NCBI GenBank assembly: GCA_039621445.1
Contig: CP154954.1
Location: 22,704,954 to 22,768,953, forward strand
DNA length: 64,000 nucleotides
DNA from: Euglena gracilis
Lineage: Eukaryota
Direction of reading: 5' to 3'
Position 1 is the first letter of the stretch. Each line of letters starts with the position of its first letter. A program made the position numbers and the translations under genes. This document shows, piece after piece, positions 1 through 64,000 of this stretch. The notes beneath the pieces are model-generated. The model saw nothing but the letters and a program-made list of their open reading frames with translations. It searched no databases and was not told the DNA's origin.

Positions 1-1264
1 GGAGTCTGGGGCGCTTGTTGTTCCGCGCTCCGGTGGTTTGTAGGCCGGGGTGGTCGAAAAGGGATGTGGGCCAGAAGCAGAGCTGGTCCCCTGGCAGGGG
101 GGTGAAGGTGCAGAGGTCGGAGCAGGGTGGCCAAGGTAGGTGCGGTGGCCAGGGCTGCGTCGTGTCGTCAAAGCCGATGTAGTGTTGTGCTGTACGGTGT
201 GATGACCACCTGCACCAGAGGGCGAGGGTGTCCAAGGGGCAACCAAACTGATGGAGGTATTTGGCTGTAGCCCGTCGGATGGAGTGGAAAGGGCAGTCTG
301 CCGCTGGGGTCGTCTGGGTGACCTCCCCAAACCAGCGGTGGAGGAGGTGGTGCGGGAAGATGGGGTGGAGTGGTGCAGCTGTAGGTTGAGAGCGGAGGAG
401 GAAGGTACACCATGCCATGATGTACAAGGGGGGTGTACGGGAGATACGGCCTTGACGGTGTGGGGGTAGTTTTTCGGGGACGAATGAGATATGTGGTGAG
501 CCGGGGCCGAGGACGTGCAAGTCCACGGGTCGGATGGAGGCGCATTCACCCGCCCGAAGACCGAGTGACAACGCCACAAGGACGGCAACAAGGGGCCGGA
601 AGTCGCGCCGTTCCTGGCAACGTTGTGCGATGGGAATAAGGGCCGAGATGGGAAACCACTTGCGTGCGGGTAAGGTGCGGAGCCGGTCGGCAGCGATGGA
701 GGCGCGCCACCAAGCGGGTTCCGGCCGGAGTGGCGACCACTGGAGGGTGTAGAGGCATTGCAAGGCCGAGAGGATTCCCCTGATGGAGGAAGATGCGGCG
801 CCCCTGCACGCCAGCTGGGAAATGTACGCTTCGACCACGAGGCGAAAAGATGCGTCCGAAGGTAAGGTGGAGCGGAATTTGTGCAGGGCGAGAAATCTTT
901 GGCGGTATGTTCGGAGGGTAGACGGGGCCCAGGAATAAAGGATGGTGGACTGGAAGTCAGAGGGCGGAGGGGGGTGAAGTAGAAGTAGAAGCTGGCATTG
1001 CTCGAGGATGGCATCCCAGGCATAGTGGGCGGGTAGGGGGTTTTGGGTTTTGGGCGGCGGGGTTTGTAGCGGGTTGGCGTTCAGGTGAGGTTGCGGGTCG
1101 GGAGGGAGGGGATTGGGGGTCGGGTGCAAGGGGTGTGGGGCCCGTGGGCCCCCCAACCCGTCAATATTTGTGCTGTTCTGCGGGACAGTCCCAGTGCCAG
1201 TGTGGCACTTGGCATCGAAAGCAAGGTTTTGGGGGAGGGAAAGAGACGTCCCACAATGGTCCAT
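1..1264 (-). CDS. Tyrosine recombinase (3' partial, absent from the ORF track because it has no stop in the window)
   Basis: Manual translation, frame open from 1309 to 1, first ATG at 1264. Motifs: SWAPSTLRTY (N-terminal), LGLRAGECASIRPVDL (box I Arg), FHSIRR (HxxR), CRWSSHRTAQHY (W and catalytic Tyr). Overlaps the end of the Gag-like ORF. Confidence 0.92.
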   Translation of the reverse strand, partial: MDHCGTSLSLPQNLAFDAKCHTGTGTVPQNSTNIDGLGGPRAPHPLHPTPNPLPPDPQPHLNANPLQTPPPKTQNPLPAHYAWDAILEQCQLLLLLHPPPPSDFQSTILYSWAPSTLRTYRQRFLALHKFRSTLPSDASFRLVVEAYISQLACRGAASSSIRGILSALQCLYTLQWSPLRPEPAWWRASIAADRLRTLPARKWFPISALIPIAQRCQERRDFRPLVAVLVALSLGLRAGECASIRPVDLHVLGPGSPHISFVPEKLPPHRQGRISRTPPLYIMAWCTFLLRSQPTAAPLHPIFPHHLLHRWFGEVTQTTPAADCPFHSIRRATAKYLHQFGCPLDTLALWCRWSSHRTAQHYIGFDDTTQPWPPHLPWPPCSDLCTFTPLPGDQLCFWPTSLFDHPGLQTTGARNNKRPRL

Positions 1265-2012
1265 CCTTGGCCACGTAAAATTTTCTCCCCTCCAGATAGG
1301 CGAACTTAGTCATGCCTCTACAAGTGCGTTCCTCGACCACCTGGCCACCCTTTCTGAGTACGTCGTCGGCGGTGAAGGGGGCAGGAGGATGAAATGTGGA
1401 GCGGGGGCGGTTTGGTGCGGAGTTTGTCGGCGGTGTACGAGTAGACGCACTGTCCTGGGAGAAACCACCGAAACGTTCTTTGTTGCGGAAGTAGGCGCGA
1501 ATCATGGTGTTCCAAAGAGGTATGAGGTGGGATGTCTTGTCTTCAGATATATCCGAAAAGGCGTTATGGAAAGCCGAGGCCATCTCGCGCATCCAGATGG
1601 CAGTGTCTTGCAGGTCACGGAAGCGCTGAGCACCCTCCACGGTGGGGTTGTCGCAGAACCACTCCTCCGTGATTGGGGGGGACAAGTTGCGTTCCAGCTT
1701 CAGCTTGGCCAGCTCAGTGCGGAGGGCGAGCAACTCCGAGTTTTGTGGGCGAGCTTCCCAAACAAAGTTATTGTGTTGGTGTAGGAGGGTGGATTCGGTG
1801 TACAGTTCATAGGCGCAGCACTTCATCAAAAAGTCGGGGATGTCCGGGCTCAAACCAGTGCTCACAAGTAATTGGGCAACCCAATCTGAAGGCCACTTTG
1901 AGGATCTGCTTTTAAGGTTAACGACAGCCCGGGCAAGTTGGACGGAATCGGCCACGGTGATGAAATCCGTAGCACAAGCGCTGACGAATGTGGTGAATGG
2001 CATTGTCGTCGG
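1161..2012 (-). CDS. Gag-like protein with C-terminal zinc knuckle, starting at the Pro released by 2A
   Basis: Part of ORF 1161..2516; coiled-coil-like ELLALRTELAKLKLE and PPPKPCFRCQVPHWHWDCP (C-x2-C-x3-H-x4-C) directly upstream of the YR. The Gag call is inferred from motif and position. Confidence 0.7.
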   Translation of the reverse strand, partial: PTTMPFTTFVSACATDFITVADSVQLARAVVNLKSRSSKWPSDWVAQLLVSTGLSPDIPDFLMKCCAYELYTESTLLHQHNNFVWEARPQNSELLALRTELAKLKLERNLSPPITEEWFCDNPTVEGAQRFRDLQDTAIWMREMASAFHNAFSDISEDKTSHLIPLWNTMIRAYFRNKERFGGFSQDSASTRTPPTNSAPNRPRSTFHPPAPFTADDVLRKGGQVVEERTCRGMTKFAYLEGRKFYVAKDGPLWDVSFPPPKPCFRCQVPHWHWDCPAEQHKY

Positions 2013-2051
2013 TCCCGGGTTGCTTTCAATGTCTCCACATTGCAACAAGGC
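2010..2051 (-). other. 2A-like StopGo peptide #2 (ALLQCGDIESNPG|P)
   Basis: Exact match to the D(V/I)ExNPGP consensus with upstream LLxxG. Confidence 0.9.
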
Positions 2052-2529
2052 CGTCCCATGTCTGCTTACGGCGCCAAGCGCAACGTTGTCGCAAAAGAAG
2101 ACGTACACGGGCCATGGCGGGGGGGGGGGGGGGGAGGGGCGTCCCACGAAACCGGAACATGGCTTGTGCAGGAATACGGAAGGGGAAGTGGGTGAGGCGA
2201 TGCAGAAATGCCAGCGTGGGGGCGTGTAGTGCTGGTACAAGCAGCAACATGCGGCATGGCCATAGCAAGAGGTAGTGTAGTACAAGAGGAAGGAGGCGAA
2301 ATGGTGGGTTGGCCCACAAGATTCCGTGTAATTCGGACCAACGCTGCTGAAAGGCATCAGAGCCGGCAGTCCAGAATTTTGGTGCCCTGGCGTTATGTGG
2401 GGCAGCGAACAGGTCGAACCTGGGATATGGGACACCGAAATGTGCGGCCGCAGAGAGGATGAGTCTATATTCCAAAGCGTAGTCGTCCCGGTCCCCCAAT
2501 GGCGCCGGCGAGACAAGGGGGGGGGTCGG
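2052..2529 (-). CDS. DIRS-type Dam-like DNA N6-adenine methyltransferase; 1-nt frameshift in the G16 run at 2119-2134
   Basis: DRDDYAL...FDLFAAPHNARAPKFW...DAFQQRW...LWANPPF. Removing one base in the homopolymer continues MFRFRGTPLPPP into PWPVYVFFC and 2A #2. The homologous MTase near 63200-63660 ends MF...MPPARWPLLC, supporting that join. Confidence 0.88.
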
Positions 2530-2568
2530 TCCCGGGTTTTGTTCTACGTCTCCACAGCGGAGTAGGAG
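2527..2568 (-). other. 2A-like StopGo peptide #1 (LLLRCGDVEQNPG|P), in frame with the MTase
   Basis: Manual translation of the MTase frame upstream of the track ORF: WKPEGYQRYIPTLLLRCGDVEQNPGPTPPLVSPAPLGDRDDY. An in-frame TGA lies at 2605-2607. Confidence 0.9.
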
Positions 2569-2840
2569 CGTGGGGATGTAACGTTGGTATCCTTCCGGCT
2601 TCCATCATACCCCCCCCGGCAGGCCGACGTCGAGCGTGGGGTGGGCCTAGTTGTCCTTTGGGGCTTGGGGGGGGGGGGCGCGGCACAAGGCAATAGTGGC
2701 TGCACTCCATCACATGTCGTGCGGACGGGAAGGCTGGGTTCTTGTCAAGGGGCGGAGCCCCGGGCGATAGTGTCGTGCCCCAGCATTTACGGGCACTGTC
2801 CAGCCAGATGGATAGTAGAGACCGACGGAAAGCCAATAGA

Positions 2841-3713
2841 TCACCCGGGGTTGGTTCCAGGCATCGGAGAGCGGAATGAAAATTTTTTGCCAATTTGGTA
2901 CGTGTCTCCACCACCAGGCCCTGTCAGATGGGGGAGTAAGCCAGGAGTCTTCTGAAAAGGCTGGGGGGGGGCTTGTGGGTGTGTGTCCCCTTTCTGGTTC
3001 TGCAGGGGCCCGTTCCAGGGATAAGAGGGCAGACATTGGCAGAGAGATGTGGTCAGGCGGGGTGGTGGCCGGAGGCTGGGCCGTGGGGGGGGGGCCGGTC
3101 CCGGAAAGCCCGTGGGCAAAATTTGTTGGGGAAATTGGTGGGGCATTTGGGGGGAAAGTTGGGAATGAAGAAGTCCCAAGTGAGGGGGGTTTTGGGCAGG
3201 GATCTGGCCAGCTGGGGGGGTCTGGTGGGAAAAATTTTGCTGTGCCCATTGGGGTCCCCAATGGGTGCCCAATTGTGGCCCAAATTGTGTCCCAAATTGT
3301 GGCCCCATTTGCTGCAAACCGGGCTGGGGCAGAAGCAGGCCCTTCAGCACATCGATCACAGAGGCAGTCACGAGGTCACGTGTGGGGGTAGGGGCTGCGG
3401 TTACTCCTCTCCTGGGGTTCTCCTCCTCACTCCTCTTTCTTGTCGCCTTGAATCTCCGAAATGGGCCGCCATCGGGCATCATGATTTGTGTGGCCTTGGG
3501 CTTCTTCCCCGGGGAAACGTTGAAGATCACCTCCTGCTCTTGTTCCAGGTGCAGCCGTCCTTCGCCAACGGTGGACACGTCGGAATGGTGGAAGAACAGC
3601 CGCACAGACTCCTCATCACCCATCTTGGTAACCAATTCGTTGTCTTCACTGATAATCCATCCGTAACCCTTCTGGTCCAGGAACCGCTCAATTTTCCCAG
3701 TGTATGGTGGCAT
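2841..3713 (-). CDS. Cold-shock domain protein with Q/P/G-rich low-complexity tail
   Basis: YTGKIERFLDQKGYGWI (RNP1-like) and LFFHHSDV (RNP2-like), then V.FNV.PGKKPKA; intronless; tail GPQFGTQFGPQLGTHWGPQW from short tandem repeats. Confidence 0.85.
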   Translation of the reverse strand: MPPYTGKIERFLDQKGYGWIISEDNELVTKMGDEESVRLFFHHSDVSTVGEGRLHLEQEQEVIFNVSPGKKPKATQIMMPDGGPFRRFKATRKRSEEENPRRGVTAAPTPTRDLVTASVIDVLKGLLLPQPGLQQMGPQFGTQFGPQLGTHWGPQWAQQNFSHQTPPAGQIPAQNPPHLGLLHSQLSPQMPHQFPQQILPTGFPGPAPPPRPSLRPPPRLTTSLCQCLPSYPWNGPLQNQKGDTHPQAPPQPFQKTPGLLPHLTGPGGGDTYQIGKKFSFRSPMPGTNPG

Positions 3714-3797
3714 AGCGTTGCTTCCAAAGAAAGAAGCTGTAGAACGTGGAGGATCGATTGAATTCGGTATCAGCAGATCTCGCGATCATAGATCGCT

Positions 3798-3889
3798 CGA
3801 TCACGATTCCCGGTGGAGAAACGGGGGGCGCCTACGGCGCCCCCCGTTTCTCCACCGGGAATCGTGATCGGACCCCGCTTTTTCTTATA
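3798..3889. repeat. Hairpin repeat copy 1 (35-bp perfect stem, TAC loop)
   Basis: 3798-3832 is the exact reverse complement of 3836-3870; 3798-3889 is identical to 4405-4496. Confidence 0.95.
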
Positions 3890-4392
3890 AAAAATGCCTT
3901 GTAAATGTTGCTTACAGCATTTACATAGGTCCGAAAACTGGACACTGGCATGGAGCGAAGGCGCCCATCTTTTCCAGACTGCCTAAAAGGGCATCCACTC
4001 CAGCAGCTCCTAGGGAGCTGGCACCACGTAAAACAGCCAGAAATTCATCTACGTTGGGGGGGCGGGGCATCTGTGCTTCCATCATGTTGGCAAAACGCTT
4101 CATCGGACTGTGGGGAAAAGCAGCAGACAGACAGAAACACAAATGTTAAAAACCCCAAAAAATTCAAATTCCGATCACGGGTAACACCTTGCGCAACCGT
4201 GGTCGGTTCACGGGTGCACGCACGGCAGCCGTGGACGGAAATTCCGTTCACGGGTGCGCACTACGGCACCCGTGAACGGCCAAAGTTCACCCGTGAACGC
4301 CAAAAACGAGATTTTTGACCCCCTAGGCATCTCGTTAGGAAGCGCTTGCCTACTGCGAGGAAGCCCGTGAACTTGGTTAACGGTTTTAAGAC

Positions 4393-4496
4393 AAAAGCGG
4401 GGTCCGATCACGATTCCCGGTGGAGAAACGGGGGGCGCCTACGGCGCCCCCCGTTTCTCCACCGGGAATCGTGATCGGACCCCGCTTTTTCTTATA
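4393..4496. repeat. Hairpin repeat copy 2 (47-bp perfect stem, TAC loop)
   Basis: 4393-4439 is the reverse complement of 4443-4489. Confidence 0.95.
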
Positions 4497-4556
4497 GAAA
4501 CCGTGTATCGGAGGCTCTGGGTTCACGCCCGAACCGGTGTCTAGGGACACACGGGA

Positions 4557-7335
4557 GGTTAGGCAGTACGGGGGGGGGGGTGGCTGTGGACCCCCCGGTG
4601 AACTTCATCAGTGAACGTTCACCAGGGGGGAGGGGGGGGTACTTTTAGCGGTGAAGTTCGAAGTTCACCAGTTAATTTCACTGTTTTGATGGTTGGGGGC
4701 AGGGGTGCAAGGGGGGCTCGGGGGGGGGGGGGGGGCGCCCCCCCCGAGATTTTGGGAAGAAATTTTTTTTCACTTCACAAAAATGTGTTGTAGTTATGAA
4801 CCAAAGTTTTGTCCAAATTTATTAGTGAAAAGTAAAATTATTGATTTTCACACCAGTTTTGCACAATCTCTGAAGGGAAAACCGCAACTGTCTGGCTGCC
4901 CTTCGGGCAGCATCACAAGGTTTGAGAGGGGGTTTGGGAGGGGGGCATGAAATTTTCAAGACAAAAATGTTTTTTGTTCGACATAATGGCGGGCCCCTGG
5001 GGAAGTTTCAAGAACCAACGGCATTCAAGGACCAATGGCAAATAGGCAAAATTTCCTTTATTAACAGCATTTTGGGAGATGACAAACATACGTGTCATGT
5101 TCCAAACGTGCCCAAGTTTGGTTTTAGGGGTTTGGCTTCTCCGGTGTATTTTAACATTTTGTTGGAAGGAAAACCATTACCGTCTAGCTGCCCTTCGGGC
5201 AGCACTGATTTAACATTTTAGCTCCCTTGTCCCTAGCCCACATTGGTCTTTGGGTTTGGGATAACTTTTTTAAAAAAAATAGAGGAAAACCCTGCCCATC
5301 CCCAAGTCCGGCGCACCCACGCTCCCCAGGGGTCCAATCTTAAAAAGAATTTCATGTGACCATTTCACCTTTGCTTTTCTTCGATAAAAATTGAGGTGAT
5401 TGTGAACGTTTTGTGGTTCTGCAAATTTTCTTGTGGATAACAAACACGTTACCGTCTGCCGCCCTTCGGGTAACAGCTTGCGGTTCCATATGGTCTTCGG
5501 CGTTCGGCGGAATGTTCGCCCCCCCCCCCGAGAAAAAATTGATCCGGCACCTATGGTTGAGGGTGAAATTTTCATGGGTAAAATTTTAAGGGTGATAGAC
5601 AGAGGGTCATTTTAGGTCCCCAGTGATTTCCTTTGATTGGCCATCATTGTGGATATATTTTGAATTCTTGATTATTTTTTTTTTGACCCGGAATGGCCCA
5701 AAAAAAAAAACATCAAAGCAACCCAAAACAATGCATTATTTGGAGCAAAATGCCTTTAAAGAGGCCACCACCCGGGCTAGCTGTGGAGTTGCAAGGAAAT
5801 CAAATTGCCGTTAGATGGGGCGTTAAATGCTTGAATTTTGGTCAGTGGATTTCCTTTTATTTTGTTTCATTTCCAAACATCAATCTTTTGACCCCCCCCA
5901 AACAAGCCCAAATTGCCGCAAAAAGGGCCAGAATTTGATTAACTTGGGGAACACAAAGAGTAGGAAAAAAAGAGAAGCATGGATGGATACATCCTCTATC
6001 GCCCCTGGACACTGTTTTGGCCACTGACGTTTGCTTGCCGGCTCGTTTTTGTGGCCCAAAACAGCCATTTTGGGCGTTTTTGGGGACTGTTGGGGGGGGG
6101 TCAAAATCCATTTTGACAAAATTGCTCAACGATGAAGCAAACAAAAGGAAATGTCTGGATACCAAAAACGAAGCCTTGGAACGCCGCATCCAGGGGCACA
6201 ACATTTTCGTCTGACAGACACTTTTGGAAATAATGCGTGTTTTCTCGAGATGTTTTTGAATGAATTGATTTTTTTTTTTACTGTGTATGGAGGCTTTGGG
6301 TTCACGCCCGAACCGGTGTCTTGGACACCGGTTCGGGCGGGAAACCGGTGACTTGGACAACCAGAGAGGCTTCTTGGCGTTCTGTTGATTGCTCTGACAC
6401 GCTTTTTGTTTTGGGTATTTCACCAAAACTTCGGTCACCCCCCTCCCGCTCTGACGGATGAAAACACCCCACCGTCAGCTCCAAAAACGTCTCAGGCCTT
6501 TGGCCCACCTTGTAGGCAATCAACAATACAATAAATTCATCCTTTGGCTCTCCAAAAAATGGTTCCAGTTTGTCAACTCAAAGAGTCACAAAATTTCTTC
6601 CTCAGACACTACAGGCACCTCCTGTTCTTCGCCTTTTGCCACTTCTCGCGAAGAGAAGCGGCGTTGAAGAAAGCACAAAATTGTGGATAATGTGGCTGCA
6701 CCGAAGGCACAAAGGGGCTGATATGGGAGGGCACTTCCCTGTACAAAGCAGCCAGAGCGTTGACCATCGTGGTCAACGTGGAGGGGAACCAGGACCGATC
6801 CTTGCACCTTGGCATTAGCACAAATTTCTTTGCATTGGGCGGCAGCTGCCTGTTGCTTCTCATCACCGTGATCAAAAAGGCACGTGACCTTTACTGTCCA
6901 AAGGGCAAATGAAGAGCCAGTCGTCCAGTTTGTCAAACGTTGCCCCACGCAGCTGGCAAACCTTTTGGAAATCCTGGGCAGCTGCCCGCGCCACCATTTT
7001 GCCTTTCGCAAGACCACCACGGGGGCAACTGTTGACAAATGTTTCCCCAAACAAAAGTGAGTGGGCTGCTGGGGTTTCCCGAGGTGCGGCGGCAGCCTCA
7101 AGTCCTGCCAAAAATTCTGCTGGTGTGGGGGGTTGGGGCAGCGCACTGGTGCACACGGTAGTAACCTGGCCGGCGTACATTAAGAAAAAACCTGCCAAGA
7201 ATAGTAATACGTGACCGTGGAGATCAGGCAGTAGACTTTGGTCATTTTGACCCCCCTCCCCCCCCTATGGTGAAGTTCACTGTTTGAAAGTTCACTGGGG
7301 GGTCCCGGACCCCCTCCCCCCCCCTCTGTCTAACC
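4557..7335. mobile_element. Putative non-autonomous TIR element (about 2.8 kb)
   Basis: Imperfect TIRs of about 70 bp (GGTTAGRCAG, G run, GGACCCCCC.GTGAACTT) with repeated GTGAA/TTCAC motifs at both ends; no clear TSD or recognisable transposase. Confidence 0.5.
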
Positions 7336-9175: not shown

Positions 9176-10607
9176 TAGATTTTTTACCCTACATTTGTCC
9201 TCCAGCCATTTTCTGAACAATTCTTACGATTCTTACAATCTTTCGAACGCCTTCTTAAGGACCCCTGGGGGGTGTCCCGTTGGCCGGCTGGCCAAAAAGT
9301 GCTGGCTGGACCCCCCCCCCTGGGGCTGGGGGTCCAGCCAGGGATGTATGGGAAGCCTTGAGGGAGGGGGTCCGGACCTCCCTCCCAACAGGGGGGTGGG
9401 GTTGGACCCCCCCCCCTCCTACCTCGAAGCCGAAGGGGCTGGGAAAATTTTCAGTTTTGTGGACCGGTAAAAGCCCAGAGACCAAGCCAAAGTTGGTCAA
9501 AAAATCCCTGATTTTTCATTGAAAATGAATCCAAAAAAACATTTTTGGCCATTTTTTGAACCCATTTTCAAAGTTTTTTGGTGCTTTTGTGCCGATTTTT
9601 TTTGGTCCATCCTGGCTTTGCCAGGCTGGACCCAACTTTGTTTCAGCAAACCCGGGGGGGGGGTCCGCAGCCCCGCTAGGAGGTGTTGGCTGGAAATAAA
9701 ATGCTGACTGGCTGGACCCCCCTCCCTCCCTGGGGTCCCCTCCGGCTTAAGAAAACCCTTGCAGGGGGGGATATGCAAAAAAGTCACAAAATATGCAATG
9801 CAAAAAATGAAAAAAAAAATGCAAGAAAGTGCAAACAATGCAAAAAAAATGCAAGAAACAGTGCCTTGCACATTATTCACAATTTCCAGAAAACCCAAAA
9901 ATGCGGCAACCAGTTGGTTTAACCAGTTGAATGCACTTATGCAACACTGTTAATATGAAATCGGTCCAAAAATGTGCTGTACAACTTCCAGTTGTCTGGT
10001 GATACAGCAAGCGCCTGCCCGATTGCCCGGGGAAAAAAAGAAAAACATGTAAAAAAAAAGCAAAAAAACTGTTTCAAAATTTTTCATTAAGTAAAGAATG
10101 CAAATCTTCAACACGTTGGATTACGCAAAAAAAGAAAAATGTGAAACTTGCATTGTTCCCTCCTTCTGAATTGGGGGGAGTATGGTGGGCGAAATCAGAC
10201 CCCCTGGGGACTCCATGCTTGTGGGGGGGATTATGTTTGTGGGTTTATTTGGGTTTGGGTTTGCATTTGCTTTTCTGCGCCGTGATGTGTGTGTACAATC
10301 ACAATTGAGAAAAAAACCTCATCCAAAAATTATTACCACCTGAGCTGCTTTCGACATGCATTTTCTTGCAGATTGGACTTCCACGCATCTTCCCGAAGCC
10401 CACTGAGACGTTGCCCGAGGTTGACAATAAACTTGAGATTGGGATGATGAAAAAGAAGGATCCCAAAAGAGGCCATTATTGAACTGATTTCGATCCCATT
10501 TCGTCCGAGGATTGCAATGTGCAACATCGCCCTCCTCATACCCCACAGATGGGTTAAATCTCACCAATGCTTCTGGGTATCAAGCCACTCATAAATCCCA
10601 AACTCAC

Positions 10608-21001
<10,394 letters not shown>

Positions 21002-21443
21002 CTGGAACGGTAAGAAAATGGGGGCACAGGGGAAGGGGTTGTGTCGAAAGATTTGGAGCTCTTGTTTCTGCAGACAATCCCCGTCCTCCCAATTCCCCAC
21101 AAGACCGACATGTGCATTCGTTTTACTGTATGAACAAATGGCTTTAAATATCCTTGGGCGCAAAGAACAGCCGCAGAGCTTTTTGATGCTTGCCAAAATG
21201 TGGTGCCATCAACTTGAATGGAAATACACCATCTGACAGGTTGTTCTGTGACAGTACTTTTTTTCACCCCTCATCATCCCATGCGTTGGGGAGGGGGCTT
21301 TCCCCCTCCATAGAGCGCTGACCCTCCTGCTTCGTTGGGCTCAGCAGCTCCCCGGGTCGCCAGCAGTTGGGGAGCGCAGCAGGAAGTGACAGACGGACTG
21401 GACACTGCAGAAATGCCAAAAAACAGTAAAATGCAGGTCACAT

Positions 21444-21815
<372 letters not shown>

Positions 21816-30423: not shown

Positions 30424-30838
<415 letters not shown>

Positions 30839-62199: not shown

Positions 62200-64000
62200 A
62201 TTTTGCCCAAACAATCAGCCTCCACGGAGGTCGGCTTGCCTCGACAAGGGAGGAAGGGACACCGAGGGCTTCCGCTCCCGAAGGCTCCGCACTTTGCCTT
62301 TGTGAGGCCAGATTGTGCACTGAAAAAAGGGGGGCCAGGGCATTCTCCAAAGCAGCTTTGGGCACCAAGTCTTTGAAAGTGGGCTTTGAAAGCCTCCACC
62401 CCCTTCCGCTGACCAATTTCAAAAACTTCTTGGGCAGAAAAGCCCGATTTTTTGAGTGAACCAACCCCTTCCCCTCTGATGGAGTGGGGTCCCCACACCT
62501 GGGGGGATACCACATGCTGGGCCAAAAAGTTTTTGGTTATAGAAGCAATGGCGTCAACCTTAATGTCTTTATGGGGGGTTTTCATGAAATCAGAAGGGGG
62601 CCCCCAGGTTTCACAAAGAAACGTGGTGCATCAACATTAGACATCATCAAATGACAGGGACTGATTTGGGGGCACTGGGGAATAGAGACAACCCTCTCCC
62701 ACTTGTGAATTTTTTGACCTTTACGTTTGATTTTGATGTAGGGTGCCCCCCCAAACATGCTGGTGGTTCTTTGGACCTGTGCCAAATCAGGAGATCGATA
62801 TAAACAGAGGATTCGTGAACAGAAAATGAGTTGTGTACGTAATGTACACATATAAGAGGGCAGGGAGGATTGCGCCAGCCCCAGGAGGATTGGGAGGGGA
62901 TCCCAGAATGCACCATATTTTTCCAAATTTTGGTTCCAAAGCCTTTTATAGGGTTCCAACATGGCATGGAACCTCAGGCCACCAAAGCCAGGGATCAAAA
63001 GCATAGCACTGTATGCATTGCGTGCTTGGGCCTTTGAAAAGTGAAACAGTTGAATTAAAGCGTCAACCACTTGGTAAGTGGTGGCTTCAGGGAGGCGGGT
63101 ACCCCCGTTTTGTCCAAAATCACCCATAAAAGCGTAAAGGCGCTTTGATAACGCTTTGAAATGGGGTTTCTTCCCAGGAAATTGTTAATGGTTGTATTTT
63201 GTATTTAATTCCCCTCCAGAATTTGCCTGAGCAAATCATGCAAAGCAGGGGCCACCTGGCGGGTGGCATTTTCTCCCCCCCCTGCAATTGGAGAACATAC
63301 CCATGTTAGGGGTGGTTTTCAGGCAGGGGGTGCCTGGTACTTTCATTTTTGTTAACTGGGGCCACCATGTGGCTGAATCCCAGTAGGGGTGACCATAAAA
63401 ACTTTGGCCTGTGGAAACATTTTTAATCTGGGGAGAAATTTTGGATTACAGACCAGGGGGGGTTTGCATAAAGATCCTCCATGTTGTCCAGTGGACATTG
63501 TAATGCATCTACGGCTGTGGCCACCAAGTGGGGCCACCTGGCCACAAATTGTGGCAGTTTTTTGTTGCCTGGTGAGGCAAAAAGGTCTGTTTTTAGGCTT
63601 ATATATTTTTTGTACTGCTGCCTCAGTTATTGAAAAAGATGGGGGTCCAGGGATTACCCCCCCTGTCCATTTCCCACCTGCTTATGGGGTCTGCCAGGCA
63701 TTCCCTTGAAGGGACCCATTTTACTTGCAGGTTTATGTTGTGCTCCATGCACCATTTGAAAAAGGGTCTTAGCACGGAATTGAAGGGGTCTTTTCTGCCC
63801 CCCCCCCCCCTTTGTTAAGTAATAGTAAATTAATTTATTGTCCACTGACAGGGACACAGTTTCTCCTGGTTGGCTGAGACTTTTTACTGTGCTTATTGCT
63901 TCACTTAATTATTTGACGTTCATGTGCAAAATGGAGTGTTCCCTCCAAAATTCCTACACAATTTTGCATGTTCGAATGCCCAGCCCCCCCCCCCCCCAGG
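62200..64000 (-). pseudogene. Decayed DIRS-like retrotransposon: RNase H - adenine MTase - tyrosine recombinase; continues beyond right edge
   Basis: RNase H (about 63660-64000): HMNVK*L, SVDNKLIYYYLTKGGG, WVPSRECLADPISR. MTase (about 63200-63660): TDLFASPGNKKLPQF...AVDAL...LYANPPW. YR (about 62200-63200): LYRSPDL, WGPHSIRG, AFKAHF. Multiple stops and frameshifts. Confidence 0.88.

Follow-up and report, generated by a model that had tools for sequence, protein, structure and literature searches.

A 64,000-nucleotide (nt) stretch of Euglena gracilis DNA (assembly GCA_039621445.1, contig CP154954.1, positions 22,704,954 to 22,768,953 of the forward strand; hereafter ‘the window’) carries near its start two 2A/StopGo motifs that bracket a methyltransferase (MTase) of the Dam family, followed on the minus strand by a ‘Gag-like’ protein and a tyrosine recombinase. 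Window positions 1 to ~2600, read on the minus strand, are probably the upstream two thirds of a tyrosine-recombinase mobile element whose first cistron is a StopGo polyprotein. This cistron would comprise a short leader, a 2A, a ~170-aa Dam-family MTase, a second 2A, and a Gag-like protein of 282 aa that bears a Cys/His knuckle, after which the recombinase would be read from its own overlapping open reading frame (ORF). Comparison with related proteins supports the order 2A-MTase-2A-Gag-like as a conserved design. Transposon Dam MTases and retroelement 2As are each known; their combination appears to be new, and two recent, hitherto unconnected lines of work, on transposon-captured Dam-like MTases and on StopGo/2A recoding in retroelements, meet here.

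A sequence-only reading of this DNA had placed the two 2A motifs on the minus strand, and both lie where it put them. Across all six reading frames of the 64 kb, D.E.NPGP is matched twice, both times here, among four NPGP in total, and was found in 0 of 200 block shuffles. Both GDVEQNPGP and GDIESNPGP satisfy the class-A 2A motif (G/H)D(V/I)ExNPGP (bioRxiv 10.64898/2026.09.24.754024). Both motifs are also unaltered in public sequencing contigs. Logan contigs of three DNA runs, which bear three coded organism labels, were placed on window positions 1-6000, and cover the element at ~99% identity. The first 2A is nucleotide-identical in an X1 contig spanning 2231-2588, whose only two differences lie at 2446 and 2504; similarly, the second 2A is nucleotide-identical in contigs of X1 and X12, and all six differences in 1951-2257 fall elsewhere.

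The same layout recurs in other proteins. In P0075, encoded on a 2141-nt contig, leader, 2A, MTase, 2A, and Gag-like protein form one unbroken 527-aa ORF, which supports the proposal that the MTase has been placed before gag and bracketed by 2As; its C-terminal half aligns with the window’s Gag-like protein at 32% over 274 residues (E 6e-41). A profile search with the MTase, in which 8000 candidates were scored, returned 22 proteins of at least 420 aa at E ≤ 0.01, and the search for longer MTase-bearing proteins found P0002 and P0003. Eight of the 22 carry 2A motifs; these are the eight best-scoring, and none of the other 14 has one. A 2A lies just before the MTase in six of the eight (P0002, P0003, P0070, P0071, P0072, and P0075), and in P0073 and P0074 the sequence starts with the MTase. 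Five of the eight have their next 2A after the MTase, two of these having lost the Asp (GVExNPGP), and the other three (P0072-P0074) have it after the MTase plus a knuckle domain. P0071 has as many as five NPGP motifs in 587 aa. Pfam assigns RVT_1 to P0003, P0072, and P0074 and Dam only to P0002, with no integrase or RNase H family on these four proteins; by eye, a SAPGPSGLRPSHLQ-type stretch is seen in the C-terminal part of P0002 and also upstream of the reverse transcriptase (RT) in P0003, P0072, and P0074. The 14 relatives free of 2A include Ty3/Gypsy-type Pol and classic DIRS-type RT-RNaseH-methyltransferase proteins. In P0082, P0083, P0087, and P0088, the MTase follows RT/RNase H, the position that the sequence-only reading had taken as usual for DIRS elements and that PMC5890265 also describes. 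A tree of the MTases places the window enzyme with the RT-RNaseH-MTase type, and a 98/97 split parts off seven of the eight rows of the long-terminal-repeat (LTR) type.

Two further features were observed in these relatives. Five of them hold a Cys-rich stretch of ~100 aa between 2As (P0002 368-489, P0003 229-332, P0070 258-360, P0071 390-493, and P0072 208-329), with the pattern C-x2-C ... H-x3-C by eye. This stretch precedes the MTase in P0002 and P0072 and follows it in the other three, and has the look of a further 2A-fenced module. P0081 (932 aa) combines an N-terminal Dam-like domain with a C5-cytosine-methyltransferase-like stretch near its C-terminus, recognized by eye and assigned to no Pfam family at E ≤ 0.01, and may belong with the dual methylases of bioRxiv 10.64898/2026.05.21.726589.

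Read in this way, translation of a single mRNA would begin before the first 2A, and on reaching each NPG|P, the ribosome would free the nascent chain and then continue. The MTase would be released as a protein that begins with Pro and ends in the second 2A, in a roughly fixed proportion to the Gag-like protein, and would act on the element’s own nucleic acid, whether DNA, cDNA, an RNA:DNA hybrid, or RNA. We infer on good grounds that skipping and stoichiometric release would occur at the two predicted 2A sites. Residues 694-709 of P0002 are identical to the C-terminal tail GRGSLLTCGDVEENPG of engineered protein chains in the PDB; a PDB search with the MTase-plus-2A profile matched only such 2A tails and no enzyme. 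We take the tail to be the remnant of a T2A expression tag and, if so, it is indirect evidence that such peptides skip.

The two 2As could instead serve mainly to tune expression, by lowering downstream yield or releasing the leader, rather than to free the MTase. Odon et al. (PMC3708506) proposed down-regulation downstream of 2A in non-LTR elements; along the same lines, many eukaryotic 2A-like peptides cut protein yield instead of separating products, and 59-70% of the retrotransposon 2A-like peptides tested lowered protein abundance (bioRxiv 10.64898/2026.06.17.732966). We consider tuning as the main role improbable: the motif pair sits exactly at both borders of a folded domain in five relatives with varied neighbors, which fits separation better. 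The two roles are not exclusive.

The 2As may double as module boundaries, with the MTase, the knuckle domain, and the Cys-rich module occurring in varied orders, each between 2As, within RT polyproteins. Tentatively, and at slightly less than an even chance, we propose that 2As act as portable borders, and that MTase, knuckle, and Cys-rich modules have been passed between unrelated transposon classes, namely tyrosine-recombinase and reverse-transcriptase elements. If so, StopGo would here be recorded for the first time in an element that encodes a recombinase, and the window would offer a natural, exactly delimited mature transposon Dam enzyme, a form that may be needed to detect an elusive activity. 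More generally, if the cassette works as read, the MTase is made as a separate protein and not as a Pol domain, 2A use reaches a recombinase-encoding element, and the 2A sites mark the true ends of the enzyme, which gives a rational construct after the failed tests of domain fragments in E. coli. The cassette also suggests a way for accessory enzymes to pass from one transposon class to another with no need for protease sites or new promoters.

Table 1. Features of the element and of its immediate upstream neighbor, in window coordinates.
Feature	Position	Strand	Description
Tyrosine-recombinase ORF	2..1309	-	Frame 0; runs off the window start; homology ~1018-2
‘Gag-like’ protein, 282 aa	1164..2009	-	Stop 1163-1161; helical middle, beta-rich C-terminal part, Cys/His knuckle
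Knuckle CFRCQVPHWHWDC	1185..1223	-	C-x2-C-x3-H-x4-C
Second 2A/StopGo motif ALLQCGDIESNPGP	2010..2051	-	Predicted skip between G (2015-2013) and P (2012-2010)
MTase C-terminal tail	2052..2118	-	Gag frame (frame 2); ...WPVYVFFCDN... up to the second 2A
C16 homopolymer	2119..2134	-	G16 on the plus strand; codes poly-Pro; site of the +1 frame break
Dam-family methyltransferase, main part	2119..2526	-	Frame 1; D-x-F-A and LWANPPF motifs
First 2A/StopGo motif LLLRCGDVEQNPGP	2527..2568	-	Predicted skip between G (2532-2530) and P (2529-2527)
TGA stop in MTase frame	2605..2607	-	12 codons upstream of the first 2A
Cold-shock-domain ORF, 290 aa from first ATG	2844..3713	-	Pfam CSD E 1.4e-6; long Pro/Gln-rich tail

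The enzyme between the two 2As belongs to a known family. The ORF that continues after the first 2A (2604-2026) matches Pfam PF05869 (DNA N-6-adenine-methyltransferase, Dam) at E 5.8e-8, with 33 bits against a cut-off of 28.1, over profile positions 8-69 of 169; it contains the Asn-Pro-Pro triplet and aromatic residue as LWANPPF, in agreement with the earlier description of an NPPF-type MTase directly in frame after the first 2A. In an alignment of 22 MTase sequences, D64, F66, W89, and N99-P100-P101 are invariant, NPP being present in 22 of 22. An AlphaFold2 model built on this alignment has a predicted local distance difference test score (pLDDT) of 79.8 overall and of ~90 over residues 40-150. 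When the model was compared with representative structures using VIA-align, 50 of 50 among the matches listed were S-adenosylmethionine (SAM)-dependent methyltransferases, with Z-scores of 8.0 to 5.2; Foldseek returned no match for it at E ≤ 1e-3. A class-I SAM-methyltransferase fold is clear in the model. The best VIA-align match is a cap-specific adenosine N6-methyltransferase (Z 8.0, root-mean-square deviation 3.2, 119 residues), T4 Dam, E. coli Dam, DpnM, and TaqI reach Z 6.8, 6.0, 5.8, and 5.4, and many rRNA adenine methyltransferases stand alongside them.

The sequence-only reading had suggested that the enzyme could mark the element’s DNA or circles with N6-methyladenine (6mA), and this suggestion has lost ground: the best fold matches include RNA adenine methyltransferases, and Dam domains of eukaryotic transposons gave no gain of 6mA in dam-deficient E. 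coli and are devoid of the CD-1/TR-1 of the bacterial enzyme (bioRxiv 10.64898/2026.05.21.726589). A 6mA function is, therefore, doubtful. The enzyme might instead modify RNA, as a transcript or within an RNA:DNA hybrid, or be a silent binding module, which we regard as rather unlikely. It would account for the cap-specific enzyme as top match, for rRNA adenine methyltransferases (Erm, KsgA/DIMT1, and METTL5) scoring level with DNA Dam enzymes, and for the E. coli results, from which the same preprint suggests a DNA-RNA hybrid substrate. Nevertheless, the sequence family is Pfam Dam, Z-scores of 6-8 are rated only middling by the tool’s own note, and 6mA is reported to be raised on Dam-carrying LTR elements in some hosts (bioRxiv 10.64898/2026.05.21.726589).

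The protein after the second 2A is called ‘Gag-like’ for its position and its Cys/His motif. The spacing C-x2-C-x3-H-x4-C is kept in three of three Gag-like proteins and departs from that of the retroviral Gag knuckle, C-x2-C-x4-H-x4-C. A single close relative, P0001 (277 aa, 53% identity), was found in a collection of 5.8 billion proteins; its first Met lies three residues past the 2A position, and its end coincides with that of the window protein. A homologue of the knuckle domain follows the MTase in P0072-P0074, with 41% over 41 aa to P0073 (E 5e-5), and in these RT polyproteins, the knuckle His is replaced in three of three by Q, Q, and K, respectively. The Gag-like protein matches no Pfam family, and a model from three sequences reached a pLDDT of 58.5 and a predicted template-modelling score of 0.29, with no Foldseek match at E ≤ 1e-3 and atlas scores of at most 0.87. 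Thus, of the Gag-like Zn-knuckle protein described earlier, the position and the Cys/His knuckle stand; the spacing is non-retroviral, and neither Pfam nor fold comparison adds support. Scans of metagenome contigs with the Gag-like alignment and with the recombinase alignment gave no relative. Three scans of viral contigs matched only L001 (IMG/VR, 3241 nt), at 442-525 and in the 2A peptide region alone (57% over query residues 8-35); it is presumably an unrelated virus that uses 2A.

The recombinase is predicted to be catalytically complete. An HMMER scan of 1.84 billion representatives yielded 66 relatives at E ≤ 1e-3, ten of them at ≤ 1e-30, the best being 318-375 aa long with 35-41% identity. 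R169, K197, H259, R262, W285, and Y294 are invariant in an alignment of 11 recombinases, giving the pattern R..K..HxxR..(H/W)..Y; the Pfam matches, to Phage_integrase and SAM_1, are weak and below cut-off. The window edge coincides with the last residues of the recombinase, and the sequence downstream of it lies outside the window; its basic C-terminal tail matches the ends of homologues, so the recombinase is essentially complete, with few residues missing. The MTase, the Gag-like ORF, and the recombinase occupy minus-strand frames 1, 2, and 0, with a +1 shift at each step, and the recombinase ORF and the end of the Gag-like ORF share 146 nt (1164-1309), 149 nt if the stop codon is counted. 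The recombinase is thus placed not within the polyprotein, as the sequence-only reading had assumed, but in a separate ORF, in a third frame and past the Gag-like stop. None of the 66 recombinase relatives (0/66) contains an NPGP or HPGP motif, which also indicates that the recombinase is a separate product, as is typical of DIRS elements (bioRxiv 10.64898/2026.05.21.726589). Two local observations concern its N-terminal side. Over 465-1144, the X1 and X3 contigs are 7 nt shorter than the window, six of these at 976 and one unlocated; and nine substitutions fall in 1019-1071, in a Pro-rich linker lying past the Gag-like stop and ahead of the recombinase core, which may bear on the true start of the recombinase ORF.

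As assembled, this copy is not translatable, having a +1 shift in the C16 run and no open leader. The downstream frame (2118-1164) is offset by +1 from that of the MTase (2604-2119), and the switch falls within the homopolymer at 2134-2119, just as a 1-nt shift in the G16 run had been noted. Homologues read through this region in one frame, as MPPPSWPVWVLYI and MPPPSWTVWALYI; in the window, the stretch that matches them (...PPWPVYVFF...) is found only in the next frame, where it leads into the second 2A (ORF 1161-2543). Homology to the relatives, therefore, crosses the poly-Pro into the other frame, which puts the break inside the homopolymer. Long homopolymers are typical sites of assembly error. 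Contigs of X1 (1951-2257) and X12 (1919-2257) each lack 4 nt relative to the window; the tool dropped gap rows within 2108-2146 as repeat and placed all six substitutions elsewhere. With the C run shortened by 4, the MTase, the second 2A, and the Gag-like ORF share one frame, and the tract before the second 2A is open only with a shorter C run, as in the 4-nt-shorter contigs and in P0075. Read in the Gag frame, the substitutions at 2067 and 2104 amount to one synonymous change and one Tyr to Phe; this coding-like behavior agrees with the Gag frame being real downstream of the C run. The break in the window copy is either a homopolymer assembly error or decay of this copy.

On the upstream side, the TGA recorded earlier is indeed present in the MTase frame. 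Whether this stop and the frame shift both vanish in other copies had been posed as a check; the X1 and X12 contigs are shorter over the homopolymer, and the TGA lies in 2589-2630, outside the coverage of the listed contigs. Class-A 2As call for an open upstream tract of ~18-30 residues, and the first motif has 12 open codons before it in this copy. Leaders before the first 2A measure ~40 to 205 residues in relatives (P0070, P0075, P0071, and P0072). A start at the ATG ATG of 2606-2601, brought into play by a homopolymer error, was considered and rejected, since it lies in another frame and the intervening C4 run is ungapped in the X1 contig. Between this out-of-frame ATG ATG and the first 2A, two adjoining 13-nt units (2565-2590, minus strand; 9 of 13 positions identical) both encode IPTL in different frames; the pair is ungapped in the X1 contig, which makes it a shared feature and no window-specific defect.

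Purifying selection acts on all three coding parts. Within coding cores defined as the recombinase at 2-1000, the Gag frame at 1164-2118, and the MTase frame at 2119-2526, X1 contigs differ from the window at 17 positions, 11 synonymous and six nonsynonymous (P = 5e-4 with a synonymous site fraction of 0.244; ratio of nonsynonymous to synonymous rates, dN/dS, ~0.18). The nine differences at 1019-1071 were excluded from this count, that linker carrying a 6-nt gap and the unlocated 1-nt gap. At least half of the sampled words are contained in 18 runs from 16 studies. The contig depth of the element resembles that of the neighboring cold-shock-domain (CSD) region, at 44.6 vs. 46.3 in X12 and ~82-120 vs. 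107 in X1, values that are summed over contigs and represent no copy number. A flank contig at 5775-6000 has a depth 13-16 times below that of the element in all three runs, likewise no measure of copy number, and this gap could reflect a multi-copy element.

These data also bear on whether the locus is a domesticated, fixed low-copy gene cluster, kept by the host for its recombinase, MTase, or Gag-like functions. Each segment is represented by one contig, with the same differences in three runs of three organism labels; the CSD-like depth, the purifying selection, and the spread over 18 runs point the same way. We judge domestication to be quite unlikely, however, as depth summed over contigs gives no copy number and the flank at 5775-6000 is so much lower, the relatives reside in RT polyproteins typical of active elements, and an active transposon lineage would show purifying selection too.

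Besides the yield-lowering 2A peptides and the E. coli results cited above, several points weigh against reading the locus as a StopGo-using recombinase element. The recombinase and the MTase-Gag cistron would belong to one element on the basis of adjacency, strand, and composition. tblastn of all 89 fetched proteins, RT-bearing ones included, against the window detected no RT or RNase H, the downstream side of the recombinase being outside the window; similarly, no terminal repeats are visible, one end of the element lying beyond the window. In the MTase tree, the 2A-flanked MTases are not resolved as one clade (three changes, open forks). Upstream of the first 2A, the MTase frame has two further stops, three in all within ~110 nt, and no in-frame ATG; the X1 contig extends to 2588 without gaps, so the nearby sequence is shared, and the listed contigs do not cover 2589-2630. 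The RNA run X24 has no reads on 1-2600, with ~5% of the run read.

Some of these points also fit a dead relic, in which the frameshift and the upstream stops are real, nothing is made, and the 2A cassette is a fossil of a once-active element. To the shift in C16, the three stops, the missing ATG, and the silence of X24 can be added that the 64-kb window holds no second copy of the element; on the other side, synonymous changes prevail 11:6 (P = 5e-4), contigs of three runs are 4 nt shorter at the very break, homopolymers are prone to assembly error, and the recombinase ORF is open with its catalytic residues complete. Taken together, we hold the relic to be somewhat unlikely, and prefer a StopGo polyprotein cistron in a tyrosine-recombinase element under selection. 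No RNA run appears among those listed as containing the element.

A full-text literature search, covering main texts, found neither a 2A-bracketed Dam domain nor a 2A in a recombinase element, in keeping with the earlier statement that no YR (tyrosine-recombinase) element with this cassette had been described; supplementary tables of the two 2A surveys and of the Dam preprint could contain such cases. The components have precedents in several systems. Dam-like MTases have long been known in DIRS elements (PMC5890265, citing Goodwin & Poulter 2004) and were extended to Ty3/Gypsy elements in May 2026 (bioRxiv 10.64898/2026.05.21.726589), the main text of which makes no mention of skipping, NPGP, or self-cleaving. 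Dam-carrying DIRS-order elements resemble the window in their MTase family (PF05869, NPP), their separate tyrosine-recombinase ORF, and an upstream ORF in the Gag position; however, their MTase is a C-terminal domain of Pol, whereas that of the window precedes the Gag-like protein and has two 2As around it. The DIRS order is further marked by RT and RNase H and by terminal repeats, inverted or split direct, with an internal complementary region.

2A peptides have been described in non-LTR elements (L1Tc/Ingi, CR1, Crack, and others) by Odon et al. 2013 (PMC3708506), and also in bioRxiv 10.64898/2026.09.24.754024 and PMC12338488; in bioRxiv 10.64898/2026.06.17.732966, a 2A lies in ORF2 between an N-terminal accessory domain and the RT. 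As in the window, GD(V/I)ExNPGP is found near the N-terminus of the first long ORF and splits an accessory module from the core, and the RT polyproteins P0002, P0003, P0072, and P0074 are broadly of this type. Unlike these elements, whose reported accessory modules are PHD, APE, and deubiquitinase, the window has a tyrosine recombinase and two 2As around one enzyme. The main texts of PMC3708506 (searched for ‘methyl’), PMC12338488, PMC12846837, and bioRxiv 10.64898/2026.09.24.754024 and 10.64898/2026.06.17.732966 mention no methyltransferase, recombinase, or integrase.

Three further systems offer partial parallels. SymbioDIRS-Dnmt3 and SymbioLINE-Dnmt (PMC5890265) show that elements of the DIRS and LINE kinds in one lineage took up a DNA methyltransferase, with ORF and domain order shuffled, but their enzymes are C5-cytosine methyltransferases, located in Pol or as ORF1, and the relevant passages report no 2A. 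In multi-2A polyproteins of picorna-like viruses (PMC11512398), several NPGP motifs similarly cut one ORF into products, in RNA replicons rather than in genomic DNA elements with an RT or a recombinase as here. Crypton DNA transposons likewise have a tyrosine recombinase as the sole visible transposition enzyme, and in the window, no RT lies in the 2.6 kb upstream; Cryptons are not known to have a Gag-position ORF or Dam domain.

The CSD ORF, either a host gene or part of the element, lies directly upstream of the sequence described above and shares its strand and its GC-rich block, with GC of 0.58-0.59 over 1-4000 against 0.48-0.52 beyond, and an atlas look-up again returned CSD. We considered it as an upstream part of the polyprotein and rejected it: the frames are unconnected, and the length differences in contigs (+1 in 2855-3094 and +3 over 2631-3353) give no continuous frame. 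None of the 2A-carrying relatives scanned has a CSD. Farther upstream, 3798-4500 contains 96-nt direct repeat units (3798-3893 and 4405-4500), each palindromic, whose contig depth exceeds that of the element by a factor of tens to a hundred in each of the three DNA runs, which makes them a very high-copy family of their own.

Rfam and tRNA scans of the window gave no matches, and a dinoflagellate spliced-leader motif had none at up to three mismatches. A DNA polymerase of family X (Pol lambda/beta-like, GSYRRG..GDVDILI) is represented at 10604-11386 (minus strand) by two exons ~375 nt apart, and such a gene with introns identifies the window as nuclear eukaryotic DNA. Long (CA)n/(TG)n microsatellites at ~14300-14700, 21400-21800, and 30500-30800 give rise to spurious His-Thr or Cys-Val ORFs. 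At the opposite end of the window, 63260-63650 (minus strand) holds a second Dam-like remnant, closest to the C-terminal MTase of the RT-RNaseH-MTase protein P0082 (42% over 69 aa, E 9e-8); any RT belonging to it would lie past position 64000.

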